Shown here: positions 13,355 to 33,170 of the stretch, in pieces
How positions within the stretch are numbered: position 1 is the first letter of the stretch
Layout of the letters: each line of letters opens with the position of its first letter
Source: Candidatus Shapirobacteria bacterium
GTDB lineage: Bacteria > Patescibacteriota > Microgenomatia > UBA12405 > JAHJSD01
Direction: 5' to 3'
Length of the DNA stretch: 34,406 nt
Assembly: GCA_027021145.1 (NCBI GenBank)
Contig: JALUUX010000073.1
Span: forward strand, 1-34,406
The notes under the pieces: generated by a model
The model's database searches: none
What the model was told of the DNA's origin: nothing
What the model saw: the letters and a program-made list of their open reading frames with translations, nothing else
Translations under genes and position numbers: made by a program

Positions 13355-13376
13355 TCAGATATAATTGAGATCGGCA

Positions 13377-14438
13377 ATGCTTAAATATATTTTGAAGCTC
13401 TTTTGTCTTCTTCAGTTGGTGGTAGTTTTCTCTTGGTTTTTGGGGGAAAGGTTTTTTCCTCTTAAAGAGACTTTCTTGGGCAGGGGTTTAGGTGAGTCAG
13501 TTGATCAACCTTTAATTTGGAGCCGAGCCAATTTTGATGGTTTTTATTATGCCAAGATTGCTCGTGATGGCTATCAATATCTTCAGCAGGCCTTTTTCCC
13601 TTTTTATCCTAAATTAATTAAGCTCTTTCAACCGTTATTTGGAAATTTTATTTTCTCAGGGATGGTTTTGGCTTCGATTTTCTTTTTGCTTGCCCTTTGG
13701 TTGTTGGCTCAACTTTTAAAAAGGGAGGGCGAAGAGGAAAGGATTATTAAGCGAGCCCTACTTTTTTTAGTTCTTTTTCCCACTAGTTTTTACTTTATTT
13801 CGGTTTATACTGAATCCCTATTTCTTTTTCTGGTCGTTTTAACCTTTTGGTGGTCAGGAAAGCGACGATGGTTTTTGGCCGGTTTGACGGCGGGCTTAGC
13901 TTCTTATACTCGGTTGGTAGGTATCTTTCTCTGGCCTGCCCTGATTTATGAATATTATCAGGCAGAGAGTCGACGTAAAATGAGGGAGCGACTCTCGGCA
14001 GCTAAAAAAGCTTTAGCTTATCGCCTAAGCCTTCGATATCTTGGTTATCTCATTCGATCTCGTTGGCATCATTTCAAAAACCTAGCTGCTCTTTCTCTTT
14101 CTGGTTGGGGTCTTTTAAGTTATATGATTTATCTCAAGAGAACTACTGGTGACTGGTTTTATTTTGCTCGAGTTCAGCCTGAGTTTGGGGCCCAGAGGAG
14201 TGTTGACCGCCTGATTTTGCTTTACCAGGTTTTCTGGCGCTATTTGAAAATGATTTTCAGAGTTAATCCTCAGAGTTATGTTTACTTTAATGTTTGGCTT
14301 GAATTCTTGGTTGCTCTGTTGTTTTTGATAATTCTGGCTTGGGCTTGGCTAACTCTAATCCATCGAGAAGAGAGAAAGCCTAATTGGCGGCCTGGATGGC
14401 TGATTTTTGCCACTTTAGCCTATCTCTTGACACTTTAA
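13377..14438 (+). CDS. GT-C fold mannosyltransferase-like membrane protein (PIG-V/GT76-like), N-terminal and central part; the reading frame is interrupted
   Basis: The ATG at 13377 lies 4 codons after the TTG at 13365 in the ORF track. NFDGFYYAKIARDGYQYLQQAFFPFYP is the characteristic N-terminal loop motif. The protein is multi-pass hydrophobic. The frame stops at 14438 while a hydrophobic C-terminus continues in another frame. Confidence 0.7.
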   Translation: MLKYILKLFCLLQLVVVFSWFLGERFFPLKETFLGRGLGESVDQPLIWSRANFDGFYYAKIARDGYQYLQQAFFPFYPKLIKLFQPLFGNFIFSGMVLASIFFLLALWLLAQLLKREGEEERIIKRALLFLVLFPTSFYFISVYTESLFLFLVVLTFWWSGKRRWFLAGLTAGLASYTRLVGIFLWPALIYEYYQAESRRKMRERLSAAKKALAYRLSLRYLGYLIRSRWHHFKNLAALSLSGWGLLSYMIYLKRTTGDWFYFARVQPEFGAQRSVDRLILLYQVFWRYLKMIFRVNPQSYVYFNVWLEFLVALLFLIILAWAWLTLIHREERKPNWRPGWLIFATLAYLLTL

Positions 14439-16163: not shown

Positions 16164-17366
16164 TTAATCTTGACGGTCGAAAAGAGAGATTCCAATTTTC
16201 TCCTGGATTGCTTTGGCAATGAATTCCTTAAAAATAAGCTCTGTTTTCTTAGAACCGGAGAGACTCTCGCTCAAATAAGACCAATCGGTTGCCTCTTTGG
16301 TGTTGCTTTTGTCTTGGGCAAATAAATTAATTGTTACTTGATAACCTTTCTTTTTTAACCTGACCGCTTGAGAAAGGATGCCGTTGAGGATATCTAATCT
16401 AACAGCCGGATCGATTTCAATTTTATTTTCCGGATCGACAGTATATTTGGCCCCAAAAGTGCCTGTATTGAACCAGATTTTCTTTACTCCTAGGATTTCT
16501 GCTGCCTCGGTGATAATTGGTTCGCTCAAAAATTCTTGCGGATTAAAGACTCGACTTTGATCTTGAGCTGTTTTTGGCGGCGCCCAAGGGAAGCCTTGGA
16601 CGCCGAAGCTGTCTACTAGTTGATGGTCAATATTAATTAAATAGGGGCGAAGACTAACATATTCACCGCTGGTCCAAGAAAAGTCATCGTTCTCATAAGT
16701 GGCAGAGTTGAGCAAAACACTTCCTCTGGCTTGGGGAAAATATTTTTTCATTAATCGGAGGTATTTATTAACGATAGCAGCATAATCAGCTGGAGTAGCA
16801 TTGATATGATTCCAGAGGGGGAGGTTGGCTTCTGGAAAAGGAACCCAAGTTCCCATTTCTTTATCTTTGATGCCGCTCTGCTTAAGAGTTTTGAAATAAG
16901 TATTAATAAAGTGATCATAAAATCCGCTTCGGAATTCGCGAAAGTCAATCAAGCCCCAGGCGGTGACCGGTTCAACTATAACTAGGGGCCTAATTTGGAA
17001 TTGGGCGAATAATTTGAGCCTTTGAGCCATTTTTTGAGCCGAATTTTTGGCAATTATGTCATCTTTAGGCATATCAGTGAAAATCATTAATTGGTTGCTT
17101 ACTAATGAGCGACAGACCTGTTGGTATTTATCCAGTTGAATTAAATGGGGATCGTTGCTTTGTTTCAGGTCTTTAATCATTGGCTCGGAGCGACAATGGG
17201 AAAGACGAAGAATTTTCTGGGCCGAGTCGAGAACGGTTTTTGGCTTTGGTTTAGCTGGTTGTCTGATAATAGGTTGGCCCACTAAAGCCTGGAAAGTAAT
17301 ATTAATCGTAGTTAAAACGATAAAAATGATAAAAAGGGTGATTAGAGCGATATTTTTTTTGGTCAT
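16164..17366 (-). CDS. membrane-anchored extracytoplasmic protein of unknown function (possible TIM-barrel glycoside-hydrolase-like partner of the GT2 synthase)
   Basis: N-terminal TM helix (IALITLFIIFIVLTTINI). It is the last gene of the minus-strand operon, 6 nt after the synthase gene. The alternating pattern with WVPFPEANLPLWNH and FGVQGFPWAPP is compatible with a beta/alpha barrel, but I did not recognise any firm catalytic motif. Confidence 0.5.
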   Translation of the reverse strand: MTKKNIALITLFIIFIVLTTINITFQALVGQPIIRQPAKPKPKTVLDSAQKILRLSHCRSEPMIKDLKQSNDPHLIQLDKYQQVCRSLVSNQLMIFTDMPKDDIIAKNSAQKMAQRLKLFAQFQIRPLVIVEPVTAWGLIDFREFRSGFYDHFINTYFKTLKQSGIKDKEMGTWVPFPEANLPLWNHINATPADYAAIVNKYLRLMKKYFPQARGSVLLNSATYENDDFSWTSGEYVSLRPYLINIDHQLVDSFGVQGFPWAPPKTAQDQSRVFNPQEFLSEPIITEAAEILGVKKIWFNTGTFGAKYTVDPENKIEIDPAVRLDILNGILSQAVRLKKKGYQVTINLFAQDKSNTKEATDWSYLSESLSGSKKTELIFKEFIAKAIQEKIGISLFDRQD

Positions 17367-17372
17367 GTTGTT

Positions 17373-18650
17373 TTAGATGCTAGAATCGCTAACGCCCAAT
17401 CTTTGCCAGTTTTGCCATTTAACATCTTCTCCTCGGACGATCATTTTTAAACTTTTGATAAGAGCAAGATATTCTACCCAAACGAGAAGATAGAATAATG
17501 CCCATGAATAAAAGAACATGATTAATAATTTTAATCTAAGTTTTTTGTCTCCGAAGATAGAGTTAACAAAGTAGATGATAAAGACAAAGAGATTGCTTAA
17601 GGTAAGGGAAAGATAGTCATTGGAAACAAAACTATAAACTACCAAGAGAGTGGCGCCAATTGGTTCGAAAAATAATTGGAGCTCGGAAAGTAAAGAGAGA
17701 GGAAGGACCATAAAAGTAAGAAATTTATTATGTTCTTTTTTAGTCGAGAAAAACATTTGTCGATATTTGATGAAGGTATCAAAGCGTCCCTTTTTCCAAC
17801 GCAACCGTTGGTTAATTAACCCAGTTAGACTAGCAGCTCCTTCAGTGTAGCAAATGGCGTCTTCAGCGTAAGTGCATTTGATTCCGTAATATCGAAGTCG
17901 CATGGTCATCTCGATATCTTCAGTTTTATTTTCGGTGTCAAAGAGGCCATAACGAGCAAAGGTGTTCTTCTTTCTAAAGGCAGCGCAAGCGCCCCCGAAG
18001 ATATATTCTGCCCCCAGAACCGCATGAGCCCGCTTATAATAGAAACCAAAGAGGTATTCAAGCTGCTGGAGAAAACCGACTAGAGTTCGATTGCTGGTGA
18101 TCTTTACATTGCCTACAACAGCATCAATGCTAGGATCTTCGAAGTACTTGACTAAATTACTGATGGTTTGGGGAGCAAAAGCCGAGTCGGCGTCCATAGT
18201 GACAATAATTTCACCCTTTGATTTTTTAATTCCTAAATTTAGAGCGGTACCCTTACCCCCATTTTCTTTATAAAAATATCTTACTTTTTTAGCTTTTTCA
18301 TGAGGTAATTGATGAAGATACTCGAGCAATTTTTCTTCGGTGCGGTCGGTTGATCCATCGTTGACAACAATGATTTCTAAATTAGGATAGTCATTTTCAA
18401 GCAAACTTTTGACTGATTTAACAATACCTACTTCTTCATTCCAAGCAGGAATTACTACCGAGACTAGGGGTTGGTAATTGGCAGGCAGTTCGCCCTTCTT
18501 CTTTTTTCGAGCGATTCTAATTCGGCGCCATTTTTCTTTAAGAGGATAAAAGGGGGCAATAAGGAGAAAAAGGAAATACTTAACCAACATTAAGCCGGCG
18601 AAGTAAATCGTTAGAGTTCGTAATAGTTCAAACCAGTTGATGATAATCAT
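17373..18650 (-). CDS. processive family 2 glycosyltransferase (PgaC/IcaA/NodC/cellulose-synthase-like polysaccharide synthase)
   Basis: VSVVIPAWNEE, IVVNDGSTD, VTMDADS, KTEDIEMTMR (TED) and INQRLRWKKG (QxxRW) are present. There is one N-terminal TM helix and a cluster of C-terminal TM helices. Confidence 0.85.
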   Translation of the reverse strand: MIIINWFELLRTLTIYFAGLMLVKYFLFLLIAPFYPLKEKWRRIRIARKKKKGELPANYQPLVSVVIPAWNEEVGIVKSVKSLLENDYPNLEIIVVNDGSTDRTEEKLLEYLHQLPHEKAKKVRYFYKENGGKGTALNLGIKKSKGEIIVTMDADSAFAPQTISNLVKYFEDPSIDAVVGNVKITSNRTLVGFLQQLEYLFGFYYKRAHAVLGAEYIFGGACAAFRKKNTFARYGLFDTENKTEDIEMTMRLRYYGIKCTYAEDAICYTEGAASLTGLINQRLRWKKGRFDTFIKYRQMFFSTKKEHNKFLTFMVLPLSLLSELQLFFEPIGATLLVVYSFVSNDYLSLTLSNLFVFIIYFVNSIFGDKKLRLKLLIMFFYSWALFYLLVWVEYLALIKSLKMIVRGEDVKWQNWQRLGVSDSSI

Positions 18651-18655
18651 ATCGA

Positions 18656-19312
18656 TTAGATACTTTTGTTAATTATAGAGCGGTATTCTCCCCTAATGAC
18701 GATAGCTTCCTGTCTGATTCGATCTTGGACGATGATGATTAGCTGAGGATATTTAACCCGAGGATAAATATATGATTCTCTCAGGGGGACAATTTTGATT
18801 TCGCCCACTTTAAAGAGGTAGGTCCAATTACGCTTAGTATCAATTAGAAGGTTGTCGCCTTTATGGAGTTTCTCAAGGTGGTTGAGGGTTCTCCAGGACC
18901 GGTCGGTATAAACAAAAAGTGCTTCGAGCTCTTTGCTTTGAGGGCGGTACTTAGACAAATAATGGGCATGATTGGTGAAAATAAGAAATTGACCGTTCTT
19001 TTTAAGTGCCGGTATTAGTGAGATTCGGCGATTAATAGCAGGAATTCTTAGATAAATTAGCTGACCATAGTTTCCTATGAGAGCGCCGGTAAGATTAGGC
19101 TCTTTCTCGGAAAGATCGATATCTTTTCGGGGAAGGAGATAGGAATAATCAAATCTTCTGATGGCGGAAACAAAATCAATGTCCTGAAGTGTGGTAAGCT
19201 CGAAGGTGTTAAGATACATATAGAGAGTGGCGCAGAAGACTAAGAAGTAAATAAGTTTTCGGCTAAGAGAAAAGAGGACGCTCTTTAAAACTTTAGTTAA
19301 TCTTCTTGCCAT
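18656..19312 (-). CDS. membrane-anchored hypothetical protein with a weak sortase-like C-terminal pattern lacking His and Cys
   Basis: N-terminal TM helix (LIYFLVFCATLYMYL). LRIPAINRRISLIP...LHKGDNLLIDTKRNWTYLFKVGEIKIVP resembles the sortase beta-barrel. However, the TLxTC position reads QLIIIVQD (no Cys) and no His lies at the expected site. Confidence 0.5.
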   Translation of the reverse strand: MARRLTKVLKSVLFSLSRKLIYFLVFCATLYMYLNTFELTTLQDIDFVSAIRRFDYSYLLPRKDIDLSEKEPNLTGALIGNYGQLIYLRIPAINRRISLIPALKKNGQFLIFTNHAHYLSKYRPQSKELEALFVYTDRSWRTLNHLEKLHKGDNLLIDTKRNWTYLFKVGEIKIVPLRESYIYPRVKYPQLIIIVQDRIRQEAIVIRGEYRSIINKSI

Positions 19313-20481: not shown

Positions 20482-20865
20482 ATGAACTACATCAAACTAG
20501 AAGACTTGGATGTTTACCGGTTATCTAGGGAAATCAGTGAAAAGGCTTGGAGTGTTTACAAGGATTTTGGTTGGCGGATAAAGAAAATAGTTGGCGATCA
20601 ATTTATTCGCTCGATTGATTCGATTGGTGCTAACATTGCTGAGGGATATGGACGATATCATTATTTAGATAAGATTAAGTTTTACTATAATGCTCGAGGA
20701 TCATTGTTAGAAGCAAAGCATTGGCTGGGACTGTTAGAGGAAAGGAAGTTGATAGAACCATCGGAAGCATCTTTTCTAAAAGAAGAACTGAGAAGTCTTG
20801 GCATAAAATTAAATAGATTTATTAATTCCACTTTTAAAGCTAAGAATGGCTCGGGGGTAAAATGA
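20482..20865 (+). CDS. four-helix-bundle protein (TIGR02436 / PF05635 family), second copy
   Basis: 127 aa with GDQFIRSIDSIGANIAEGYGRYHY...ARGSLLEAKHWL, the same NIAEGYG signature as 5139..5531. Confidence 0.85.
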   Translation: MNYIKLEDLDVYRLSREISEKAWSVYKDFGWRIKKIVGDQFIRSIDSIGANIAEGYGRYHYLDKIKFYYNARGSLLEAKHWLGLLEERKLIEPSEASFLKEELRSLGIKLNRFINSTFKAKNGSGVK

Positions 20866-21884: not shown

Positions 21885-24800
21885 ATGGCGGTGAAACTTA
21901 AATTTACGGGAGAAAGAATTGTTCCTGGAGCTACCGATGTAGAACCTGCTTTTCAAAGAAAAATGCTCCAAGAACACCTTGCGAGGTATTTGTTTGCTAG
22001 TCACTTTTCTTCAGGTAAAAGGGTAATTGACCTGGGTTGTGGTACAGGTTATGGAGTTGATTTTCTTTTGAAACACTCAGATCCTGACGAAATTATTGGT
22101 ATTGATATTGCTAAAGAGGCAATTGATTTTGCTAGGACTAACTATAAAAATAAGAAGGCAAAATTTTTAGTTGCTGACGCTACGAATCTTCCTTTTGACA
22201 ATCATTCGTTTGATTTGGTTTTAGCTTTCGAATTAATAGAGCACCTAGATAACCCCGAAATGCTGGTGAAAGAGGCAAAAAGGATATTGAAAAAACGGGG
22301 CTTTTTTATCGTTTCGACTCCAAAACGAAAGAGAGGCAAGAGGTCCATTTTTCATAAACACGAATTTTCTTTTTTGGAATTCTCTTCTCTGCTGAAAAAT
22401 TATTTCCCTCAAGTTAAATTTTTAGTGGAAAATAATATTTTTGCCTCTCTAATTAATGAAGGAAAAACTCTTGGGAAGATAATTGATAACCAAGACGGAT
22501 TTAAGATTCCTGGCCTAGAAGATGGCGATTATTTTATTGCTATTTGTGCTCTTGATAAGTTGCCGTCATTACCAGAAAACACATTGTTTGTTAACAATGA
22601 TGACTATATTCTTCGTCTAGAGCATGATGTTCAGGTTTTGAGGGAGGCAGAGAATAGGCTGAAGGAAGAAAAAAGGAGCCTGATTCAACAACTGGAGGAT
22701 TATCGGGTCAAAATAGATAATTTAGTGCGAGAAAACACTTATTTGTCGGAGATGAACGCCCTTAGCAAAGAAAAGACTTCCTTTTTGGAAAGGAGAAATA
22801 AGAGACTGGTGTCAAAAATTAATTCGTTCAAGGAGAAACTTGAGCGAACTCAAGAGCTTCAGTCGCGAGTTAATTATTTAGAGGGCGAGCTTAATAATTA
22901 TCGGGTAATATTGGATAGGATTACGTCTTCTAAAGGATGGAAGCTATTGAGGCTTTATTACCTAATTAAAGAGCTATTTATAGGTAAACCAGAGGACCCT
23001 TACTACAACCTCTTCTTTAGGGGTAAAAGGATTTTATTGAAAGCAATCGAGATCTATCGGCAAAGAGGCTGGAAAGGAGTGATAAAAAGTGGAAAGAGGT
23101 TTCTTTTTAGAAAACTAAGACTTGACAAGATTGTAACCAGCCGAAGAGACGAGGAAAGTCTTTTTTCTAGTGTTCAGAGACGTTCTAAATTACCCTCGAG
23201 CAATTTTAGCGTTTGTATTATAAGCGGCTGTGAAGGAACAGGTGCAGAAATTCATAGAGTGTTTCATTTAGCAGAAGTCTTAGAATTAGCTAATATTCGT
23301 CACAAAATAATTCCTCACTCTAAACTTAATGAATATTTGTCCAGTAACGAAGGAGTGAAGACTATTTTTGATTATGATATCTTTTATATTCATCGAGCGG
23401 CATGGAATGAATCTCTGGAGAAATTGTTGAGGGGGGCTAAGAGATTTAATCGTTTAATCATCTACGATATTGATGATTTGGTGTTTGATCAAAAAATTAT
23501 TCCATTTGTGAGAGTAATTGCCGATTGGCCAGAGGAGAAAAAATCACTTTATCGAGAATCGGTAATTAGATACTGGCGAGCGATGGATTGGGCCGATTAT
23601 TTTGTCGCCCCGACTGACTTTTTAGCAAATTATATCAGGAAAATGTTTGATAGGCCGGCCTTTGTTTTAAGAAATCATCTTGATCTGAAAACCGCTCAAA
23701 TAGGGAATAAACTTATTGGGCGACTAATCAAGAAGAAAGAAAGGGTGGTAATAGGCTACATGAGTGGTACAGCGACTCATGATAGAGATTTTCAAGAAGC
23801 AAGTGGGGCACTTATCAAGATTCTTGAAAAATTTCCCCAAGTAGAACTGAAAATTATTGGGCCACTGAATTTAGATAAAAAATTCCGCCGTTTTTCTTCT
23901 CGAATAAGAAAAGTAAAGTTGGTTCCCTTTTATGACCTTTTAAGAGAGATGGAGGACTTTGATATCAATTTGGCCCCATTAGAAGTTGGTAATCCCTATT
24001 GTGAGGCTAAGAGCGAATTGAAATACTTCTTCGCAGCCATTTTAGGGATTCCCACTGTAGCTTCAGCAACGGATTCCTATAAGTTCGCTATTACTCATGG
24101 CAAAAACGGGTTCTTGGCTACTAATGAAAACGATTGGTATCAGGCTCTTTCTAGATTGGTCCAAGATAGCTCTTTAAGAAGGCGAATAGGCGACCAGGCT
24201 AGAAAACAAGTGAAGTTTTACTTGCCCGATAATCAAAAAAATGAAGTAGTAAAGGTGATTAGGAAAATTGTCAATTCTTATAATAAGGACTTGACTAGTA
24301 AAAAAAAAGTTTCGCCCCAAAATAACGGCTCATTGATAATAAATTTCGTTTTGCCAGAACCGCTTAAAGCTTCTGGAGGTCATGCAGTAGTTTTTCGTCT
24401 GTCTGAGCAATTAACTTCTTGGGGACATAAGGTTAATATTTACTTTGTGAAAGTTGATGGCAACGACTTTATTAAAAACGAACAGGAATTGGAATTATTT
24501 GTTCGGGAAAATAATTTGAGGGGTAAGGCAAACTTTTATCTTGGTTTGGATAAAATAGAACATTCCGATGCACTAGTGGCTACCTATTGGAAGACTGCCT
24601 ATATGATTAAAGAAATAAATAATACTAAGAGAAAGTTTTATTTAACAATGGATTTTGAACCTCTTTTTTATCCGGCAGGGTCGGCTTATTTGATGGCCGA
24701 GAATAGCTACAAGCTCGGATATTATCACATTGCTACGGGTTATTGGATTCCAAAACTCCTTAAGAAAAGATATGGAGTGCCAGCTGAAGGAATCGACATT

Positions 24801-25433
24801 GCTACCGACAAAAATATTTATTTTCCTAGAAATGTAGAAAGGGTTAGTCCGTCAGTTGCTTTCTTTGCCCGACCGAGGATGCCAAGAAGAGGCTTTGAGT
24901 TGGGTATTGAGGCATTGAGAATAGTTAAAGAAAAAAAGCCGGAAGTACAGATTTTTCTTTATGGAGATCGAAATTTTTCTGAGTTCAATATTCCATTTGA
25001 ATATCATGATTGTAAAATCTTGCCAGAAGACAAATTGGCAGAGTTATTCTCTCGTGTTGATGTCTCTTTAAGTATCTCTCTAAGTAACCCAAGTGTAATT
25101 GCTCTTCAAGCGATGCATTGTGGGTGTGCTGCGGTAGAAATAGATTATCCTACTAATGATGGGACTTATATTAATAATCTCAATTGTCTTTTGGCTCCTC
25201 CGCATCCTCGAGGAATAGCTGAAACGGTATTAAAACTGCTGGATAATAAAAAATTGAGAAGAGAGATTGCCCAGAGAGGCCTTCAGTGGGCTAATGGAAT
25301 TTCTTATGAAAAAACGACAAGACAGTTTTTAAGAATTATTAAAAGAGAATTGAAGAGGGCAGAAAAGGATGAAAAGAAAGAGTCTCAGAATAACTTATCT
25401 AGTACCATCTCTCTACCTGACGGGTGGTATTAA
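21885..25433 (+). CDS. multidomain glycan assembly protein: class I SAM methyltransferase, about 100-aa coiled coil, then two GT-B (GT4-like) glycosyltransferase modules
   Basis: VIDLGCGTGYG is motif I and LVLAFELIEHL follows it. A heptad-rich segment, LRLEHDVQVLREAENRLKEEKRS...LEGELNNYRVILDRI, spans about 22608..22928. GT module 1 (about 23205..24290) has IIYDIDDLVFD and CEAKSELKYFFAAILGIPTVAS. GT module 2 (about 24326..25340) has LKASGGHAVVFRL and PSVIALQAMHCGCAAVE. Confidence 0.8.
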   Translation: MAVKLKFTGERIVPGATDVEPAFQRKMLQEHLARYLFASHFSSGKRVIDLGCGTGYGVDFLLKHSDPDEIIGIDIAKEAIDFARTNYKNKKAKFLVADATNLPFDNHSFDLVLAFELIEHLDNPEMLVKEAKRILKKRGFFIVSTPKRKRGKRSIFHKHEFSFLEFSSLLKNYFPQVKFLVENNIFASLINEGKTLGKIIDNQDGFKIPGLEDGDYFIAICALDKLPSLPENTLFVNNDDYILRLEHDVQVLREAENRLKEEKRSLIQQLEDYRVKIDNLVRENTYLSEMNALSKEKTSFLERRNKRLVSKINSFKEKLERTQELQSRVNYLEGELNNYRVILDRITSSKGWKLLRLYYLIKELFIGKPEDPYYNLFFRGKRILLKAIEIYRQRGWKGVIKSGKRFLFRKLRLDKIVTSRRDEESLFSSVQRRSKLPSSNFSVCIISGCEGTGAEIHRVFHLAEVLELANIRHKIIPHSKLNEYLSSNEGVKTIFDYDIFYIHRAAWNESLEKLLRGAKRFNRLIIYDIDDLVFDQKIIPFVRVIADWPEEKKSLYRESVIRYWRAMDWADYFVAPTDFLANYIRKMFDRPAFVLRNHLDLKTAQIGNKLIGRLIKKKERVVIGYMSGTATHDRDFQEASGALIKILEKFPQVELKIIGPLNLDKKFRRFSSRIRKVKLVPFYDLLREMEDFDINLAPLEVGNPYCEAKSELKYFFAAILGIPTVASATDSYKFAITHGKNGFLATNENDWYQALSRLVQDSSLRRRIGDQARKQVKFYLPDNQKNEVVKVIRKIVNSYNKDLTSKKKVSPQNNGSLIINFVLPEPLKASGGHAVVFRLSEQLTSWGHKVNIYFVKVDGNDFIKNEQELELFVRENNLRGKANFYLGLDKIEHSDALVATYWKTAYMIKEINNTKRKFYLTMDFEPLFYPAGSAYLMAENSYKLGYYHIATGYWIPKLLKKRYGVPAEGIDIATDKNIYFPRNVERVSPSVAFFARPRMPRRGFELGIEALRIVKEKKPEVQIFLYGDRNFSEFNIPFEYHDCKILPEDKLAELFSRVDVSLSISLSNPSVIALQAMHCGCAAVEIDYPTNDGTYINNLNCLLAPPHPRGIAETVLKLLDNKKLRREIAQRGLQWANGISYEKTTRQFLRIIKRELKRAEKDEKKESQNNLSSTISLPDGWY

Positions 25434-26457
25434 ATTGGTCCTCGAATATAGTAACAAGCTAATCGAGAGAGGTCATAAGGTAAATATTGTTTTTCCGTGG
25501 AGGATTAATCCTGCCTTTGGGGTTAAATATGAGATGCTGAAATTTCTCTGGTATGGAAAACTCTTTTTTGAAAAGCTCGCGGGTAAAAACTACATTCCCT
25601 GGTTTAATTTTTTAGGTAAAATTATTAAAGTACCCAATTTTCTAGACAGATATTTGCCTCAAGGGGATATTATTGTGGCTACTTCTTGGGATACAGCTAA
25701 ATGGGTGGCAAGAGCCTCTAGTTCTAAAGGAAAAAAATTCTACTTTATTCAGCAATATGAGGTGTGGGGAGGAAAGGATGAGGTAGATGAGAGTTTTAAG
25801 TTGCCACTTAGGAAAATTGTAATTGCTTCCTGGTTACAAAAACTATTGAAAGAAAAATTTCATGAAAATTCTTATTTATTAGTCAATGGTGTTGATACTA
25901 AACTATTTCATCCAGTTAAAGTTAAAAGGAACAAAGGTGAATTTAGGATTGGAATGCTATATCACCCGGCTCCTTGGAAGGGAACAAAATATGGTTTTGC
26001 TGCTTATAGAATAGCAAAGAAGGAGATACCTGAACTCAAACTAGTACTGATTAGCGCTTACCCGATGGGAGACAATTTCCCGCCAGACACAGAGTTTCAC
26101 TTTATGATACCTCCAGCAAGACTGAAGTACATTTATTCTTCATGCGACCTTTGGATTAGTCCAAGTTTATCCGAAGGTTGTCAAGCACCACCAATGGAGG
26201 CAATGGCTTGTGGGGTTCCAGTAATTGCCACCAGGGTCGGAGGTATTCCCGATTACACTATTCCAGGAAAGACGGCTATAGTGGTAGAACCCAGAGATGT
26301 CAAAACAATGGCGGAGAGTATTAAATTGTTGTACAATGACAGCATATTAAGACATCAAGTTGCTAAAGCGGGCTATAATTATATAACTAAAAAGTTTACT
26401 ATTGACGGAATAATAAGCAAGCTAGAGGATATCTTTCTTGAATCTTTAGATAACTGA
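25369..26457 (+). CDS. GT4-family glycosyltransferase
   Basis: RITYLVPSLYLTGGIKLVLEY is a typical N-terminus. PSLSEGCQAPPMEAMACGVPVIATRVGGIPD is the E-x7-E region. It overlaps the preceding gene by 65 nt. Confidence 0.8.
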   Translation: MKRKSLRITYLVPSLYLTGGIKLVLEYSNKLIERGHKVNIVFPWRINPAFGVKYEMLKFLWYGKLFFEKLAGKNYIPWFNFLGKIIKVPNFLDRYLPQGDIIVATSWDTAKWVARASSSKGKKFYFIQQYEVWGGKDEVDESFKLPLRKIVIASWLQKLLKEKFHENSYLLVNGVDTKLFHPVKVKRNKGEFRIGMLYHPAPWKGTKYGFAAYRIAKKEIPELKLVLISAYPMGDNFPPDTEFHFMIPPARLKYIYSSCDLWISPSLSEGCQAPPMEAMACGVPVIATRVGGIPDYTIPGKTAIVVEPRDVKTMAESIKLLYNDSILRHQVAKAGYNYITKKFTIDGIISKLEDIFLESLDN

Positions 26458-26569: not shown

Positions 26570-26800
26570 ATGGTAGTGAAGGATATTATTTTCTTGATAC
26601 TAATATGTTTGATTTTTCCGAAGACGATTTATGCTTATCTTGATCCAGGGACAGGGAGCTATATTGCTCAAATAATTGTTGCTAGCTTGTTGGGAGTATC
26701 TTATCTAGTCACAAACTCTAGAAAAAAAATTAAGACTTTCTTTGCCGGTCTCTTTTCAAAACTTCAAAGAGGCAAAAAGAACAATGACCGACAACATTAG
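26570..26800 (+). CDS. small membrane protein with a YLDPGTGS motif between two hydrophobic helices
   Basis: 76 aa with helices IIFLILICLIF and IAQIIVASLLGVSYLV and a basic tail. A candidate promoter lies directly upstream. It overlaps the next gene by 17 nt. Confidence 0.5.
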   Translation: MVVKDIIFLILICLIFPKTIYAYLDPGTGSYIAQIIVASLLGVSYLVTNSRKKIKTFFAGLFSKLQRGKKNNDRQH

Positions 26801-28172
26801 AATAGTTTCGAGTTCTTTCCGGGATCCCAGCGGCTTTGTTTTTTTATACAAGAACAGACTTTACCGACAAGTAAATAAAACATACGCGGAGCATTATGAT
26901 TTCTTAATTAAGTCTGGCCTTTATGAGACCCTTGTTAGACGCAAACTCTTAATTGCCCATAAAGAAGTTGATGTCAAATATAATCAGCTTGACAGTAAAG
27001 CATACAGGATTATAAAACCTGCGGTAATTCCTTTTATTTCCTATCCTTATGAATGGAGCTTTAGCCAACTAAAAGACGCTGCTTTAGTTACTTTGGAAAT
27101 CCAGAAAATAGCATTGAGGCATGGAATGTCTCTTAAAGATGCAAGTGCCTATAATATTCAGTTTTACGAGGGAAGGCCAGTTTTGATTGATACTCTTTCC
27201 TTTGAGAAATATGAAAAAGGGGAACCGTGGGTTGCCTATCGGCAATTTTGTCAACATTTTGTTGCCCCATTAGCCTTAATGAGTTATAAAGATTTGCGCT
27301 TGAATCAATTGTTTAGGATCTTTATAGACGGAATTCCGTTGGATTTGGCAAGCAAACTATTATCCTGGCAGAGTAGACTAGCTCCTTCTTTATTATTTCA
27401 TATTCATCTTCATGCAAAAGTGCAGAAATATTTTAGCAATAAAAACACAGGGGCAAAAAAAATAAGATTGGATAATAAATCTTTATGGAGAATCATTAAG
27501 AGCCTAGAGATGACAGTGAGTGGCTTTAAACTGCGCGAGAGAGAAACAGAGTGGAGTGATTATTATACTAAAACCAACTATTCTTCAATCGCTTTTGCCC
27601 ACAAGAAAGAAGTCGTTTCGGGGTGGCTCAAAAAGATTAAGCCAAAGACGGTTTGGGATTTGGGTGCGAACGTGGGAGTTTTTAGTCGTCTTGCTTCCAA
27701 AATAGGATCCCAAGTAATATCATTTGATGCGGATCCACTAGCGGTAGAGCAGAATTATCTTCGGTGTAAAGAACAAAGAGAAAAGAAAATATTACCACTG
27801 TTGATTGACTTGACTAATCCTAGTCCAGGCATTGGATGGGAGAATAAAGAGAGGATGTCTCTATTTGGGCGAGGTCCTGCAGACGCGGTACTTGCTCTTG
27901 CTTTAGTTCACCATTTAGCTATTTCTAATAATGTACCATTTATTAAGATTGCTGATTTCTTTTCTAAAATTTGTAGTTCACTTATAATTGAATTTGTGCC
28001 CAAGAATGATTCGCAAGTTCAAAGACTCCTTGCGACTAGAAAGGATATCTTCTGTAATTATAAGCAAGAAGTTTTTGAGAGCGAGTTTCAAAAATATTTT
28101 ACTATTCTGAAGCTTACAAAAATAAAAGATTCAGAAAGGGTTTTGTATTTAATGAAAAAACGATCGGGATAG
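26784..28172 (+). CDS. two-domain class I SAM-dependent methyltransferase
   Basis: I prefer the ATG at 26784 over the TTG at 26742. The conserved N-terminus SSFRDPSGFVF starts 8 codons later. The C-terminal Rossmann domain has TVWDLGANVGVFS (motif I) and ALALVHHL. Confidence 0.75.
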   Translation: MTDNIRIVSSSFRDPSGFVFLYKNRLYRQVNKTYAEHYDFLIKSGLYETLVRRKLLIAHKEVDVKYNQLDSKAYRIIKPAVIPFISYPYEWSFSQLKDAALVTLEIQKIALRHGMSLKDASAYNIQFYEGRPVLIDTLSFEKYEKGEPWVAYRQFCQHFVAPLALMSYKDLRLNQLFRIFIDGIPLDLASKLLSWQSRLAPSLLFHIHLHAKVQKYFSNKNTGAKKIRLDNKSLWRIIKSLEMTVSGFKLRERETEWSDYYTKTNYSSIAFAHKKEVVSGWLKKIKPKTVWDLGANVGVFSRLASKIGSQVISFDADPLAVEQNYLRCKEQREKKILPLLIDLTNPSPGIGWENKERMSLFGRGPADAVLALALVHHLAISNNVPFIKIADFFSKICSSLIIEFVPKNDSQVQRLLATRKDIFCNYKQEVFESEFQKYFTILKLTKIKDSERVLYLMKKRSG

Positions 28173-28174
28173 AT

Positions 28175-29680
28175 ATGCGGAAGAACCTAGTAATTCATCC
28201 ATTCCTTTTTGCAGTGTTTCCTATCTTGTTTCTCTTTTCTCGTAATGCGGACAAACTTCCGTTAAACGTGATTTTTATGCCGATAGCAGTCACTGCGCTT
28301 TTTGTCCTACTATTATTTTTTGTAATGACCTTTATTTTGAAGAGCAGAGAAAGAGCAGGGTTGTTGATCTCCGTTTTTCTATTATTCTTTTTTTCTTATG
28401 GTCATGTTTTGACCCTCGTTCCAAATTTTAAACCTGTTGTCATAAGAGGTGTTTCTATCGAGACGGACAAAATATTTTTTTCTGTTTGGTGCGTGCTTCT
28501 TGCCCTCGGACTATATTTGCTTGCGAAGACATGTAAAAACCTCAATCAGCTCACGAAGTTTTTAAATGTTGTTGCCGCTTTTTTGGTCATAATTTCTCTA
28601 AGCACTGCCCTACCCCGTCAACTTAAGGCAAAAGAATTTATTCATTTGGAGGGTGAAAAAAAGGAAGAAGGGAAAAACGACAAAGTAACACAAGAGACGC
28701 AAGCTTTGCCAGATATCTATTACATCATTTTAGATGGTTATGCAAGTTCAAACACACTTAAGGAGTTTTTTAATTATGATAATAGTGAATTTATTAATTA
28801 TTTAAAAGAGAAAGGGTTTTATGTCGCGACTAAAAGCTTGAGCAATTATGCTCATACCCATTTATCACTAGCATCTTCACTAAACATGAAATATATAAAT
28901 TATTTGACAGAAATAGTTGGTGAAGATTCAGATGATCAAACTATAACTCATCGGATGATAATAGATCACGAAGTGGGACGTTTCTTAAGATCGAAAGGAT
29001 ATAGTATTGTGCGCTTTGATGACGGTATGCGGCTATTTGGATTTTTGCCAATGTTAATTCGTACTACCATGTTAGGGCCCTTCATAGAGAGATATTTAAC
29101 CCGTGCTGATATTAGAGAAAGGATGCTTTATGAGCTTGATAAGTTAGCAGAAATTCCTCGTATTAAAGAACCGACGTTTACCTTTGCCCATATAATTCCT
29201 CCTCATCCTCCTTATTTGTTTGGTCCAAACGGAGAAATGGTTAGTGAAGAATTACAGGGATGTCGTGATCTTGTGTGTGCTGATTGGAGTCTGAAAGAAC
29301 AATATCTTGGTCAGCTGATTTTTATCACTAAGAAAATTAGGAGTTTAATAGATGTAATATTATCACAGTCCGAAACACCACCAATTATTATTTTGCAATC
29401 GGACCACGGACCAGCGTCTAGTGGATGGATGCAGCCTAACGAACAATTGTTTAGAGAACGAATGAGCATTCTCAATGCTTATTATCTTCCTGGAAATGGC
29501 AAAAGCCTCTTGTATGAGTCGATAACCCCTGTAAATACTTTTAGATTGATTTTTAACCATTATTTTAACGCTAATTATGAATTATTAGACGACAGAAGTT
29601 ATTTCTCTGGCTTACAGAATTATAAGTTTATTGATGTGACTGATATAATTCGGGGAGAATCAAAAGAAGAAAATTATTAG
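28175..29680 (+). CDS. membrane-anchored alkaline-phosphatase-superfamily transferase (sulfatase/LtaS/EptA-like)
   Basis: About five N-terminal TM helices are followed by an extracytoplasmic domain with PDIYYIILDGYASS (metal Asp), NYAHTHLSLASSL and IIILQSDHGP. Confidence 0.7.
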   Translation: MRKNLVIHPFLFAVFPILFLFSRNADKLPLNVIFMPIAVTALFVLLLFFVMTFILKSRERAGLLISVFLLFFFSYGHVLTLVPNFKPVVIRGVSIETDKIFFSVWCVLLALGLYLLAKTCKNLNQLTKFLNVVAAFLVIISLSTALPRQLKAKEFIHLEGEKKEEGKNDKVTQETQALPDIYYIILDGYASSNTLKEFFNYDNSEFINYLKEKGFYVATKSLSNYAHTHLSLASSLNMKYINYLTEIVGEDSDDQTITHRMIIDHEVGRFLRSKGYSIVRFDDGMRLFGFLPMLIRTTMLGPFIERYLTRADIRERMLYELDKLAEIPRIKEPTFTFAHIIPPHPPYLFGPNGEMVSEELQGCRDLVCADWSLKEQYLGQLIFITKKIRSLIDVILSQSETPPIIILQSDHGPASSGWMQPNEQLFRERMSILNAYYLPGNGKSLLYESITPVNTFRLIFNHYFNANYELLDDRSYFSGLQNYKFIDVTDIIRGESKEENY

Positions 29681-29852
29681 GGAGATCTTGATTGAGCGAA
29701 TTAATTCAAGGAGATAGTGCATTTTTCTTAGATTTTTCTTAAAACAAGTATAGCCGAACATTTGAGATTGTGAGGGTTCTATATAATTTAGTTGTAGACG
29801 CGATAAACAAGTAAGAGGGTATAATTTTTTCTAAGTCTCTTAAGTAGTAGGA

Positions 29853-30695
29853 ATGGAGAAGCTTTTAAAATTTTTAAAAGGAAAAAACTTTCCTGTTTAT
29901 ATTTTATCAAATGGAAAGCTGGCTGCGTGGCATAAAATGGGACGTTCTCCTTATAGAGTAATAATCTGTTCGATGCCTAAAGCTGGAACTTACCTATACG
30001 CCAAGTTATTAGAATTGCTTGGCGTAGAATTTGTGAGATTACATCTTTGGTTAACCGGTTTTTCTGATTATAGATTCGCCTCAATTAAGGAGGGAAGAGA
30101 GAGATATAAAGAATTTAATATAGAAATGCCTCTAAGCAAGACCCTTGAATTGATTCATCCCGGGCAATTTGCTGTTAGTCACTTAGAATGTTCTTCTCTT
30201 ACGAGAGAACTACTTAGAGACTTCAAGAAGATTTTTGTTTACCGCAATTTTAGGGACTCTCTTATTTCTCATATGCGCTTTATGGTTGATACAGGGCGGG
30301 ATAAGGAAGGCACTGCTCCTTTTAGACACTTGCCCGATGGTCCAGACAAACTATTGAAGTATATAGAAGTATATTCGGGTCATTTTATCAAAGAATCAAA
30401 GGGAGTTCTTGGATGGATAGACCAAGATGATATTCTAAAGCTCTCTTTTGAGGATATCTATGGCGATAATGGTGAAGAGCGACAGTATAAGGTAATAAGA
30501 GATATTTGTAAATTTTTAGATCTACCTCCAGAAAAGAGAAATTATAGAGAGATTTTGATTCAATTGATTGGCGCTAAAACACTAACTTGGTCTGGAAAAA
30601 GGACGGATAGGAGTATTTTTTGGGACGAGAGGGTGGAGCGACGATTCGCCGAAATTGGCGGAAGAGAGATCAATAAAAAATTAAATTATGAATAA
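29853..30695 (+). CDS. sulfotransferase-family protein
   Basis: VIICSMPKAGTYLY matches the 5'-phosphosulfate-binding loop (PKxGT). VYRNFRDSLISHMRF matches the 3'-phosphate-binding motif (RxxxDxxxS). Confidence 0.65.
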   Translation: MEKLLKFLKGKNFPVYILSNGKLAAWHKMGRSPYRVIICSMPKAGTYLYAKLLELLGVEFVRLHLWLTGFSDYRFASIKEGRERYKEFNIEMPLSKTLELIHPGQFAVSHLECSSLTRELLRDFKKIFVYRNFRDSLISHMRFMVDTGRDKEGTAPFRHLPDGPDKLLKYIEVYSGHFIKESKGVLGWIDQDDILKLSFEDIYGDNGEERQYKVIRDICKFLDLPPEKRNYREILIQLIGAKTLTWSGKRTDRSIFWDERVERRFAEIGGREINKKLNYE

Positions 30696-30772: not shown

Positions 30773-31348
30773 CTACACGTCTTTTGATGTTCGTGATTTC
30801 CCCCGGGAATCTTTCTCTATTGCGGCAAAAAACATAGATAAGATTTTTTTTACATAGAGGGGGCTCGTTGGGGAAGAATTGATACTGTCCGGGTTAGCTA
30901 AGAACGTCTTACACCCTACAGCCTTACCGGCCATTATATCAGATTCGCTATCGCCAATTACAATTGAGTTTTTGAGATCAATATTAAACTCTTTGGCTGC
31001 CTGAAGGATCATTCCGGGCTTTGGTTTGCGACAATTGCAATGGTCTTTAATATCATGGGGACAATAGTAGATGGCATCAATAATTGCCCCCTTTTTCTTT
31101 AAACTGGCAACCATTTTTTCATGGATTTTCTCAACCACTTCCCGAGACACTAGTCCTCGGGCAATCCCTCTTTGGTTAGTGATTACAATGACTAGATAGC
31201 CCTCTTCTTTGGCAGCCTTAATGAGTTCTTCTATTCCAGGAATGAACTTAAACTCTTTCCAACTTTTGACGTAATCGTGTTCCTGGGGTTTTTGATTAAT
31301 GATTCCGTCGCGGTCGAGGAATACCGCCTTTCTTTTTTTCTGTCTCAT
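30773..31348 (-). CDS. gmhB: D-glycero-D-manno-heptose 1,7-bisphosphate phosphatase (HAD-IIIA)
   Basis: AVFLDRDGIIN (DxD nucleophile motif), VITNQRGI, CNCRKPKPGM and VIGDSESDIMAG are present. The C-terminal tail is about 35 aa and unconserved. Confidence 0.85.
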   Translation of the reverse strand: MRQKKRKAVFLDRDGIINQKPQEHDYVKSWKEFKFIPGIEELIKAAKEEGYLVIVITNQRGIARGLVSREVVEKIHEKMVASLKKKGAIIDAIYYCPHDIKDHCNCRKPKPGMILQAAKEFNIDLKNSIVIGDSESDIMAGKAVGCKTFLANPDSINSSPTSPLYVKKILSMFFAAIEKDSRGKSRTSKDV

Positions 31349-31916
31349 AAAAGTAATTGGTAATTAAATGATTGAAAATGAGATGGAAGTCTTCTATTGG
31401 GCCATATTCGTTTGAGGGAACTAAGACATAAGCGTCTACCATTTCTTTTACTTTACCGCCATCAAAACCCAGAAAAGCTGTGGTTTTCATTTTTAATTTT
31501 TGGGCTGTTTGAACCGCCTTAATGATATTTTGAGAATTACCGCTTCCGGTAATAACTAGAAGTAAGTCTCCTTTTTGTCCCAGATTTTTTAATGGTTCTG
31601 AGAAAATCGTCTCATATTTCCAGTCGTTACCAATGGCAGTCAATAGGGGAATATTATCAGATAAGGAGATTATTCTAAAACGTCTATTTTTTGTTGTTGG
31701 TTCTTTACCTAAGATCGTTTTTCCCAAGTCGCAAACCATGTGAGAAGCTGTAGCAGCACTACCACCATTGCCAGCAATGAATATAGTTCGACCTGTTCTA
31801 AGTTTTTTTTCTAGAATCTTTATTACATTGACGATTTGATTAATATCGATCTGCTCGCAGAGAGATTTGATTTTTTCAAGATAGGCTTTGGCAAATTTAT
31901 TTTTATCGATTCTCAT
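31296..31916 (-). CDS. gmhA: sedoheptulose-7-phosphate isomerase (SIS domain)
   Basis: IFIAGNGGSAATASHMVCDL, LLVITGSGNSQNI and IEDFHLIFNH are present. It overlaps gmhB by 53 nt and hddA by 4 nt. Confidence 0.85.
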   Translation of the reverse strand: MRIDKNKFAKAYLEKIKSLCEQIDINQIVNVIKILEKKLRTGRTIFIAGNGGSAATASHMVCDLGKTILGKEPTTKNRRFRIISLSDNIPLLTAIGNDWKYETIFSEPLKNLGQKGDLLLVITGSGNSQNIIKAVQTAQKLKMKTTAFLGFDGGKVKEMVDAYVLVPSNEYGPIEDFHLIFNHLITNYFYETEKKKGGIPRPRRNH

Positions 31917-32899
31917 TTTTCTCCATAATAAATAATTTTACTCCCCTCTGGTTCAAAAGCAAATGGGGTGGGACGCAATTCTGGCAAAGCAGAGCAAATA
32001 GAAGAATGCTTCTCTTTTGGCGCATAGAGAAGGAGAAAGCCGCCGCCACCGGCTCCAAGAATTTTTCCACCGATAGCTCCATGTTTTCTAGCGATTTCGT
32101 ACCACTCGTTGATTCTTTCATTGGTGATTCCACGAGCCAACTGTTTTTTTAGTTCCCAATTTTGGTGAAGAAGATCGCCAAATTGATCAAGTTTATTTTT
32201 TTCTAGAGCAGACTTAAGCTTATTGGCCAATTGTACCATCTGGGCAAGGATTTTTCTTTTTTGAGGGCTGGAGCTGGTCTTTTTATTTTGTTCTTCAAGG
32301 ATAGAAGCCGAAGAACGAGTGAGGCCAGTATAAAGCATTAATAGATTTTCTTGGAGTTTTTCTTTGGTCTCTTTACGACAGATAATTGGATTAACGAAAA
32401 CACTTCCATCGGGATTGAATTGAATATAATTTAGGTTTCCAAAAGCAGCAGCGTATTGGTCTTGTTTTCCAATTGGTTTTTTACAGCGGTCTATTTCTAT
32501 ATAGCAAGCCTCTTGAGCTAGTTTTTGAGCAGAGGCAAACTCTCCTTTATAAGCGTGAAGGGCATTGAGGAGTCCAACAGTATATGTACTTGAAGATCCT
32601 AGGCCGGTTCCCCGTGATGGAATATCAGAAATAGAGGTGATCTCTATCCCTCCATCTAGATCCAATAATAATAGAGCTTCTCGGATTAACTCGTGTTTTA
32701 ATTCTTCGGGGCGACTAGCAAACTCAGTGATTGAATAGCTAGCTCTGATCAGGTTATCAAATTTTTTGTTTACGGTGATATAGATGTACTTATTGATGGT
32801 AGTACTAACAACAGCGCCTGGTTGGTATTTATAGAAAGAAGCTAAATCGCTTCCTCCGCCAACAAAGCTTATTCGTAATGGAGTTCTTGAAATGATCAT
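31913..32899 (-). CDS. hddA: GHMP-family sugar kinase, D-glycero-alpha-D-manno-heptose 7-phosphate kinase type
   Basis: MIISRTPLRISFVGGGSDL is the typical HddA-like N-terminus. SRGTGLGSSSTYTVGLL is GHMP motif II and KILGAGGGGFLLL is motif III. Confidence 0.75.
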   Translation of the reverse strand: MIISRTPLRISFVGGGSDLASFYKYQPGAVVSTTINKYIYITVNKKFDNLIRASYSITEFASRPEELKHELIREALLLLDLDGGIEITSISDIPSRGTGLGSSSTYTVGLLNALHAYKGEFASAQKLAQEACYIEIDRCKKPIGKQDQYAAAFGNLNYIQFNPDGSVFVNPIICRKETKEKLQENLLMLYTGLTRSSASILEEQNKKTSSSPQKRKILAQMVQLANKLKSALEKNKLDQFGDLLHQNWELKKQLARGITNERINEWYEIARKHGAIGGKILGAGGGGFLLLYAPKEKHSSICSALPELRPTPFAFEPEGSKIIYYGEK

Positions 32900-32940
32900 T
32901 GATGATCTTTAAAAATTCAGGCTTGTTTTGGCCCTTCCTG

Positions 32941-33170
32941 TTGTTAATTATTACTAATTATTACTTATGATGATTTTAACAATGAGAGAATTTTAACACA
33001 AGGTGGTGGTGTTTATTGAGTTATTAACTTATTAATTATTAACGGGTTGGGGAGTGGTATTGAAAAGTTAAAAGTTAAAAATTAGCTCGTTATGCTAGCG
33101 ATAAGAATAAAAAGAATAAAAAATGAGAAAGGATAGAAAAGAATAGAAACTGGAAACTGGAAATTGGGAG
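32941..33170. repeat. long spacer made of consecutive short tandem duplications (stutter repeats)
   Basis: Successive motifs are taattattac x2 (32945..32964), ttttaaca x2, ggt x3, ttatt-type units x4 (33013..33043), aaagtta x3 (33062..33084), gaataaaaa x2, (g)gaatagaaa x2 and ctggaaa x2. Confidence 0.85.

Follow-up and report, generated by a model that had tools for sequence, protein, structure and literature searches.

A candidate single-polypeptide polymerase and chain terminator encoded next to wzm and a short wzt in Candidatus Shapirobacteria

Contig JALUUX010000073.1 of a Candidatus Shapirobacteria genome (GenBank assembly GCA_027021145.1), whose 34,406 nucleotides were analysed and are termed the window in the following, carries the genes wzm and wzt for the two subunits of a glycan-exporting ABC transporter and, 47 nt downstream of wzt, a long open reading frame (ORF) for a fusion protein. 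This protein is composed of an N-terminal class I S-adenosylmethionine (SAM)-dependent methyltransferase, a coiled coil, a basic segment, and two glycosyltransferase (GT) modules with GT-B fold, and it is followed by a stand-alone GT4 glycosyltransferase (Table 1). In an initial annotation, made from the letters of the DNA, the order of methyltransferase, coiled coil, and two GT-B modules had been proposed together with the neighbourhood of Wzm and Wzt. The domain order was borne out by Pfam hidden Markov models (HMMs), an AlphaFold2 model, and Foldseek, and Pfam and NCBIfam agree on the transporter genes, between which a small gene of the 23S rRNA-intervening-sequence (IVS) family, absent from the initial annotation, is located. 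By analogy with characterised systems, the product of the ORF is probably polymerase and chain terminator in one, acting in a surface-glycan pathway of Patescibacteria (candidate phyla radiation, CPR) that depends on the ABC transporter.

Table 1 Features of the fusion locus in the window, with their positions and the evidence for each assignment
Feature	Position	Strand	Evidence or remark
wzm, ABC-2 permease of glycan exporter, 256 aa	19626..20396	+	Pfam ABC2_membrane, E=2.4e-17
23S rRNA-intervening-sequence-family (four-helix-bundle) gene between wzm and wzt	20482..20865	+	Pfam 23S_rRNA_IVP, E=5e-23
wzt, nucleotide-binding subunit, short form, 247 aa	21095..21838	+	Pfam ABC_tran, E=7e-24
Fusion protein, whole ORF, 1182 aa	21885..25433	+	ATG start; ORF list, Pfam, AlphaFold2 model
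N-terminal class I SAM-dependent methyltransferase, aa 1-236	21885..22592	+	Pfam, motifs, PDB profile search, AlphaFold2 model
Coiled coil, aa ~239-347, about 15 heptads	22599..22925	+	Period-3.5 signal, Pro-free, modelled helices
Basic aromatic-rich segment, aa 348-440	22926..23204	+	Charge; candidate peripheral membrane anchor
First GT4 GT-B module, aa ~441-804	23205..24296	+	Glyco_trans_1_4, model, Foldseek, GTa HMM
Second GT4 GT-B module, WsaF-like, aa ~812-1150	24318..25334	+	Pfam WsaF_N, WsaF_C
Stand-alone GT4 glycosyltransferase, paralogue of second GT module	25369..26457	+	Glycos_transf_1, E=4e-23
Putative precursor genes for GDP-heptose / GDP-mannose (GmhB-, GmhA-, HddA-, ManC-like)	30773..34259	-	NCBIfam

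The N-terminal domain matches Methyltransf_11 at residues 49-143 (E=2.5e-24, 86 bits compared with a cutoff of 21). It contains the SAM motif VIDLGCGTGYG at residues 47-57 (D49-x-G51-C-G53-x-G55-Y-G57), and the acidic residue ending strand 2 is D74. In two independent alignments, comprising 13 and 9 homologues, no variation occurs at the residues of the SAM motif, D74, D110, E116, E119, and H120, or in the N-terminal motif FTGERxVP, which is specific to this methyltransferase family. A search of the PDB with the domain profile returned many class I methyltransferases (best E=8.5e-24), including a D-glucose O-methyltransferase, and a class I methyltransferase was likewise returned by Foldseek. 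The initial annotation had placed a SAM methyltransferase in the terminator position, and the domain found there indeed possesses intact SAM-binding motifs; by comparison with known terminators, it may function as a chain-capping O-methyltransferase.

The segment that follows shows the features of a left-handed coiled coil. Residues 237-350 (114 residues) include no proline and a single glycine, the heptad register is nearly unbroken, and in a seven-column arrangement of the sequence, nearly all positions of one column are hydrophobic. In a Fourier test, the hydrophobicity power at period 3.5 was 79.7 compared with 11.6 +/- 11.4 in 2000 shuffles, a value attained by about 1 in 1000 shuffles, and no signal was present at period 3.6, a pattern that marks a left-handed coiled coil rather than a simple amphipathic helix. 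With a custom 28-residue heptad scorer, the coiled coil was barely distinguishable from shuffled sequence. The AlphaFold2 monomer model, which was built on 13 homologues and has a mean predicted local distance difference test score (pLDDT) of 77 and a predicted template-modelling score (pTM) of 0.43, comprises a Rossmann methyltransferase (residues 21-236), long helices at residues 239-293 and 298-347, and complete GT-B modules at residues 443-804 and 818-1166. The heptad-rich segment had thus been located correctly, at about 22608..22928 (residues 242-348), in the initial annotation. If it forms one continuous parallel coil, its approximately 107 residues correspond to a calculated length of roughly 16 nm (0.148 nm per residue).

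The adjoining basic segment has a net charge of +16 over 93 residues, compared with at most +3.3 per 100 residues elsewhere in the protein. Such a charge would suit a peripheral anchor to the membrane at the coil's base, a role which the segment might have. The segment is modelled as helical with low confidence, the low-confidence helices extending to about residue 426. It starts with SSKGWK, matching the family motif SxSWR; the strict form of the motif was present in only 4 of 29 methyltransferase-bearing ORFs of a genome survey, and as a shared mark of the junction it is suggestive only.

Both GT modules are retaining GT4 glycosyltransferases with GT-B fold. The first one matches Glyco_trans_1_4 at residues 642-761 (E=6e-18) and the family HMM designated GTa (3e-144), and it was modelled as two Rossmann halves. 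In the second one, WsaF_N and WsaF_C matches extend across residues 890-1114 (E=2e-6 and 8.5e-14), and its sole sequence match in the PDB is WsaF (2x0d, E=2e-10). Foldseek searches of the PDB with the GT modules returned the retaining GT4 enzymes MshA, PimA, BshA, and HepE, which as top matches had target-normalised template-modelling scores of 0.6-0.69, and the methylmannose-polysaccharide (MMP) mannosyltransferase. The stand-alone GT4 protein matches the family HMM of the second module (GTb) at 1e-23; its start is set at 25534 (307 aa) by gene callers on other assemblies, and a counterpart occupies the equivalent position at the locus of the closest relative.

With respect to the sugar transferred, R249 and R254 of WsaF align with the conserved residues R996 and R1001, and K302 of WsaF with R1029. 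H326, Y329, and E333 of WsaF are replaced by N1068, V1071, and Q1075, the motif PHPSYPPLE reading SNPSVIALQ in the fusion protein. These three WsaF residues belong to a proline-rich motif which was proposed by its authors, as a proposal only, to be a signature for rhamnose (PMC3898925). No rml genes were found in the window with Pfam and NCBIfam, and such genes could sit elsewhere in the genome, so that motif and gene content are weak evidence against the use of rhamnose. At the end of the window, genes resembling those for the synthesis of guanosine diphosphate (GDP)-activated heptose or mannose are present: the GmhB model scored 182.9 bits compared with a cutoff of 178, and models of GmhA, HddA, and GMP_PMI type were the best matches of the others, below their cutoffs. 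The gene of the closest homologue, P0002, is linked to SIS and GHMP-kinase genes, that of another close homologue, P0003, directly follows the end of a gmhA-like gene, and the three closest homologues show linkage to heptose-precursor genes rather than to rml genes. Because of this linkage, the absence of rml genes from the window, and the replaced residues of the rhamnose motif, the donor sugar is predicted to be GDP-heptose or GDP-mannose more likely than deoxythymidine diphosphate (dTDP)-L-rhamnose.

Comparison with homologues shows which part of the protein varies. A word-indexed search retrieved 12 full-length homologues with 1078-1389 residues and 30-52% identity. In an alignment of 13 full-length homologues, conservation extends over the methyltransferase and both GT modules, and no part of the family other than the coiled coil is hypervariable: the stretch between the motifs NDDxYVxxLERDVxIL and SxSWR comprises 58-213 residues, is not conserved, and is virtually free of proline. 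In the window protein, this stretch has a length of 110 residues, in P0002 one of 58. The latter is 95.6% identical to P0043, and the sole indel between the two is a tandem duplication of the heptad SKINELS within the coiled coil. Among the internal repeats of seven linkers, four had offsets of 14, 21, 21, and 28 residues and the remaining three offsets of 11, 18, and 54. Variable length and changes in heptad steps are expected of a spacer selected for length while keeping its register, and the survey for length variation suggested in the initial annotation thus gave a positive result, with one pair of proteins differing by exactly one heptad.

With HMMER, 1.84 billion cluster representatives were searched exhaustively; pooled with the earlier matches, this yielded 37 proteins with the order methyltransferase, linker, GTa, GTb, in which the linker comprises 121-539 residues (median 185), and a further 119 that have the GTa-GTb didomain and lack this methyltransferase. 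In many members of this second group, the didomain is preceded by another N-terminal region of 200-750 residues, and these regions (proteins P0168-P0314) may represent alternative terminator modules. The third-closest full-length homologue, P0003 (locus L085, GCA_038834685.1, JAWBHR010000045.1; 38-41% identity), was deposited as part of a metagenome-assembled genome (MAG) of the archaeon Thermosphaera sp.; its contig of 8 kb also carries GT2 and GT4 genes. The deposition would be due to horizontal transfer into Archaea or else to an error in binning.

In a scan of GTDB species genomes, 79 loci were obtained and analysed with domain HMMs. Fused proteins are encoded in Burkholderiaceae, Methylocystis, Hyphomicrobiales, Desulfovibrio, and a deltaproteobacterial MAG, in which the fused gene lies directly behind wzm and a wzt of 456 codons. 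In Novosphingobium soli, the parts are split, and an ORF of 490 residues for the methyltransferase and the coiled coil overlaps the start of a 726-residue GTa-GTb ORF. Many Acidobacteria possess, directly downstream of wzt, a methyltransferase and coiled-coil protein of 365-506 residues, whose tail consists of 120-270 residues of proline-free heptads and ends with SRWVKLGRR, a variant of SxSWR; this is the same stand-alone arrangement as in WbdD of Escherichia coli. In the stretches of these acidobacterial loci that were retrieved, no GT didomain was detected. Conversely, GTa-GTb proteins of about 725 residues without methyltransferase adjoin wzt and wzm in Bacilli, Tenericutes, and some CPR genomes. 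As to the concern that the domains might be routinely separate and unlinked in homologues, both joined and separate forms exist; in the latter, the methyltransferase and coiled-coil part stays next to wzt and one split pair is adjacent, although linkage of the split parts was demonstrated only in the locus of N. soli. On balance, the distribution argues for the domains forming one functional unit.

We infer termination by methylation, a ruler function, and membrane binding, as well as the donor sugar and the acceptor, and the pathway might operate as follows. The fusion protein would oligomerise via its coiled coil and would be placed on the cytoplasmic face of the membrane by the basic segment. 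The two GT4 modules, together with the neighbouring stand-alone GT4 enzyme, would extend a polyprenol-linked glycan until its non-reducing end reaches the methyltransferase, held at a distance of about 8-16 nm, where O-methylation would stop elongation, and the finished chain would be exported by Wzm/Wzt.

Several observations weigh against this mechanism. The initial annotation was right in describing Wzt as a short form without a cap-recognising carbohydrate-binding domain: none of its 247 residues lies beyond the alignment with the nucleotide-binding domain (NBD), and the Wzt of the closest relative is of similar size (249 residues). An HMM built from 28 C-terminal extensions of Wzt proteins had no match in the six frames of the window and none in the 20-kb locus of the closest relative (L082), while as a positive control it recovered 31 ORFs in other loci. 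The transporter's NBD bears a carbohydrate-binding module (CBM) in all examples of terminated O-polysaccharides, and transporters without CBM couple chain extension to export (PMC11231755). The lack of the CBM is more than a neutral detail and speaks, for this organism, against the complete canonical mechanism. Since Wzt has no cap-binding module, gating of export by the cap is improbable, and in contrast to the canonical systems, export is probably not controlled in this manner here. In addition, the similarity of the methyltransferase to the known terminator WbdD does not go beyond the superfamily level (28% identity across 97 residues of the methyltransferase cores, E=2e-4), and WbdD was not among the top 60 matches of the PDB profile search. 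The helix of the coiled coil is interrupted at residues 294-297 in the monomer model, with only moderate confidence for the break, and an intramolecular helical hairpin, which would halve the length of the spacer, is possible according to this model. Finally, neither an initiating phosphoglycosyl transferase nor a ligase could be recognised among the genes of the window.

The loci of other organisms give a different picture of the transporter. In 17 of the 18 loci outside the window which contain this methyltransferase family and a Wzt, the latter extends by 173-198 residues past the NBD, as much as a carbohydrate-binding module would occupy, whereas among the GT didomain loci without the methyltransferase, Wzt is short in 16 of 27 entries; the family is thus linked to cap-recognising transporters. 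The mechanistic reading, the best one available, is strengthened by this and the other comparative evidence and weakened for the organism under study by the absence of a cap-binding module. Three explanations are conceivable: the cap is not used for the gating of export, a non-homologous or distantly encoded binding module exists, or methylation does not terminate the chain in this lineage. As candidates for a cap-binding protein, two ORFs downstream of the GT4 gene (476 and 501 residues) were considered, which had no informative match in Pfam or NCBIfam; they are also unrelated to a 650-residue protein at the equivalent site in the closest relative. We tentatively entertain a ruler that works without cap recognition, in which length would be set by the geometry of the fused enzyme alone and export would not be proof-read, the product being a methyl-capped glycan that contains heptose, possibly attached to a surface protein encoded 8 kb upstream. 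If true, length control would be separated from the gating of export, two processes coupled in every characterised terminated system.

The alternative that the methyltransferase decorates internal or otherwise non-terminating positions, with the coiled coil serving only for oligomerisation or as a scaffold and length resulting from coupling of synthesis and export as in Klebsiella pneumoniae O2a, appears rather unlikely, even though it would agree with the NBD-only Wzt of the window and of the closest relative, with the failure to detect a CBM homologue nearby, and with the finding that the terminal pyruvate of O1 is unnecessary for length control (PMC11231755). It leaves unexplained why the same methyltransferase family is accompanied by a long Wzt in 17 of 18 other loci and always sits at the far end of a spacer which varies in length by heptad steps; a spacer needed for oligomerisation alone would hardly be expected to range from 58 to more than 200 residues. 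The protein could also be a multifunctional enzyme for a short, defined oligosaccharide with a methylated end, linked to protein or lipid, whose coiled coil does not measure anything. The processivity of GT4 enzymes cannot be read from sequence, and several GT-C (PMT-like) enzymes, a repeat-rich surface protein of 1329 residues, and a sortase-like protein make protein glycosylation plausible in this window, but the presence of a Wzm/Wzt exporter and the order wzm-wzt-fusion-GT4 match polymer pathways such as that of the Geobacillus slg cluster, and the GT didomain lies beside wzm and wzt in dozens of loci, so that we regard this option as improbable. An origin of the fusion by frameshift, misassembly, or read-through joining separate genes, for which one might cite the adjacent 490- and 726-residue ORFs of N. 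soli, is next to negligible: an identical product of 1182 residues is encoded on two further independent assemblies (ENA ERZ27262676 and Logan SRR8439019), showing that the ORF is real and no local assembly artefact; the same continuous architecture is found in the 37 fused homologues from diverse lineages, and the composition shows no anomaly across the fusion region. An origin by misassembly or frameshift was therefore rejected.

As to the transporter genes themselves, the top NCBIfam models for Wzm were galactan Wzm/RfbD and KpsM, both below cutoff, and those for Wzt were TagH and galactan Wzt. Linkage of the fusion gene to wzm and wzt is also present in the closest relative, in which the gap between the two genes is occupied by an acetyltransferase gene and a DUF4230 gene in place of the IVS-family gene; the gap seems to tolerate insertions, and the IVS-family gene is probably not a part of the pathway. 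A second copy of this four-helix-bundle family is located at 5139..5531.

Downstream of the stand-alone GT4 gene, three accessory genes (26742..30695, forward strand) encode the 476-residue protein, with a faint signal of an FkbM-type methyltransferase in its C-terminal part only, the 501-residue multi-pass membrane protein, whose soluble part resembles a sulfatase or lipoteichoic acid (LTA) synthase by eye and has no significant family match, and a sulfotransferase (Sulfotransfer_1, E=5e-11). Their similarities suggest further decoration of the glycan, possibly by sulfation; they are not conserved at the locus of the closest relative.

Upstream, a gene at 9365..13354 (forward strand) encodes the secreted-looking protein of 1329 residues with CarboxypepD_reg repeats, a Ser/Thr/Pro-rich C-terminal part, and a terminal hydrophobic and basic tail; the guanine-plus-cytosine (GC) content within this gene rises to 0.46-0.50 compared with about 0.37-0.40 elsewhere. 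This protein is a candidate for glycosylation at the cell surface and might serve as acceptor of the glycan. The weakly sortase-like gene near it lies at 18656..19312 (reverse strand). The genes at 1612..3381, 3405..5060, and 13365..14438 have GT-C family matches (PMT/PMT_2, PIG-V-like), the first two sharing an odd Lys/Leu/Phe-rich insert (KLKLEFKFKEVRSKKFKLRLLILKYAQFI... and KFKFKLKLKFKEVESEKLKLKLLALKYTQFI...), and the gene at 136..1482 has no Pfam match and is GT-C-like by eye only. The GT-C protein encoded at 1612..3381 shares 44-53% identity with its best named relatives, which come from MAGs labelled Patescibacteria group bacterium and Candidatus Shapirobacteria. Several PMT-like GT-C genes and IVS-family genes, as present in the window, are common in CPR genomes, and a Microgenomates-like CPR bacterium is the most likely source. 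At 16164..18650 (reverse strand), a GT2 synthase similar to PgaC/IcaA (TIGR03937, E=7e-54, below cutoff) and then a 400-residue ORF without family match are encoded, which may represent a separate synthase-dependent polysaccharide system beside the ABC-transporter locus. Between GT2 and GT4 genes, a 344-residue ORF without Pfam match (6446..7480, forward strand) contains, by eye, a putative kinase-like motif 'FVHGHFSAEDLI' reminiscent of the aminoglycoside/choline-kinase fold.

To our knowledge, the surface glycans of Patescibacteria are essentially uncharacterised, and a literature search retrieved no paper linking this group with Wzm/Wzt systems. These glycans probably matter for the epibiotic lifestyle, and the locus places a putative terminator, coiled-coil ruler, and polymerase design in Patescibacteria. 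The family moreover offers a natural series of coiled-coil lengths, including the single-heptad variant, for tests of the ruler model outside enterobacteria. In other respects, the result is the correct annotation of a known enzyme type.

The design has a precedent in a Firmicute. WsaE of Geobacillus stearothermophilus NRS 2004/3a carries an N-terminal 2-O-methyltransferase, which caps the S-layer polyrhamnan, and two polymerising rhamnosyltransferase domains, as was shown in 2008, and in the slg cluster its gene overlaps wzt within the order wzm-wzt-wsaE-wsaF (PMC2943079, PMC3898925). Judged by this published description, WsaE and the window protein agree in the combination of an N-terminal O-methyltransferase and two GTs in one polypeptide, in the gene order wzm-wzt-fusion-GT4, in ABC-transporter dependence, and in a non-proteobacterial host. 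The second GT module is in turn similar to WsaF, the GT4 enzyme encoded after WsaE. The systems differ in that WsaE uses dTDP-L-rhamnose whereas the window lacks rml genes, and in that the Geobacillus Wzt is predicted to bind the methylated end (PMC2943079) whereas that of the window consists of the NBD only. A ruler role of a coiled coil is not described for WsaE in these papers (PMC2943079, PMC3898925), and no Geobacillus protein appeared in the homologue search or in the scan of GTDB species genomes.

WbdD (E. coli O8/O9/O9a; K. pneumoniae O5/O3) shares with the window protein the succession of methyltransferase, coiled coil, Ser-x-Trp-Arg/Lys, and basic region (PMC3482155, PMC11231755). 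For comparison, the O9 genes of E. coli HS were used (wzm, wzt with 431 codons, wbdD with 708 codons, and wbdA). There, the coiled coil of WbdD ends with ...EIEKIHRSRSWRMTKGYRYLG and is followed by a basic region, and BLASTP aligned residues 317-358 of the window protein (...ILDRITSSKGWKLLRLY) with the 'SRSWR' junction of WbdD, a weak match (E=0.045). WbdA likewise is a two-module GT4 polymerase encoded beside wzm and wzt, with almost no sequence similarity to the GT modules studied here. Whereas WbdD and WbdA are separate proteins, terminator and polymerase form one chain in the window, without a kinase, and the E. coli Wzt of 431 residues includes a CBM, in contrast to that of the window with 247.

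Single proteins with terminator, coiled-coil ruler, and two GTs are also known from Enterobacteriaceae. WbbB (Raoultella terrigena / K. pneumoniae O12) has this organisation (PMC11231755), but its terminator is a GT99 beta-Kdo (3-deoxy-D-manno-octulosonic acid) transferase and not a methyltransferase, and the Kdo cap is the ligand of the CBM on its Wzt. ORF6 of K. pneumoniae O7 unites methyltransferase, coiled coil, and two GTs in one protein and is accompanied by a stand-alone GT (PMC11231755); it differs from the window protein by an additional kinase domain and an immunoglobulin (Ig)-like CBM before the coiled coil, by the addition of methyl-phosphate, and by GT modules belonging to GT2 (GT-A fold) rather than GT4 (GT-B fold). 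ORF6 orthologues were reported in alphaproteobacteria, gammaproteobacteria, and cyanobacteria, and the terminator-ruler-polymerase strategy was called widespread across bacteria by the authors (PMC11231755).

One expectation of the initial annotation has to be given up in the light of these systems: the paradigm is not newly extended beyond Proteobacteria, as WsaE of the Firmicute Geobacillus was already published. A single-polypeptide design with a methyltransferase is not new, as shown by O7 ORF6 with its cyanobacterial orthologues and by the 37 fused homologues in public data. The design itself is already known, also outside Proteobacteria, and by analogy the window protein may in effect be a WbdD-type terminator lacking the kinase that is fused to a WbdA-type two-module GT4 polymerase. 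What distinguishes it from the known systems is the CPR host, the linkage to heptose-precursor genes, and the pairing of a candidate capping enzyme with a CBM-less transporter, the latter being the one feature which departs from the published rules; taken together, the three features are a moderately interesting deviation.

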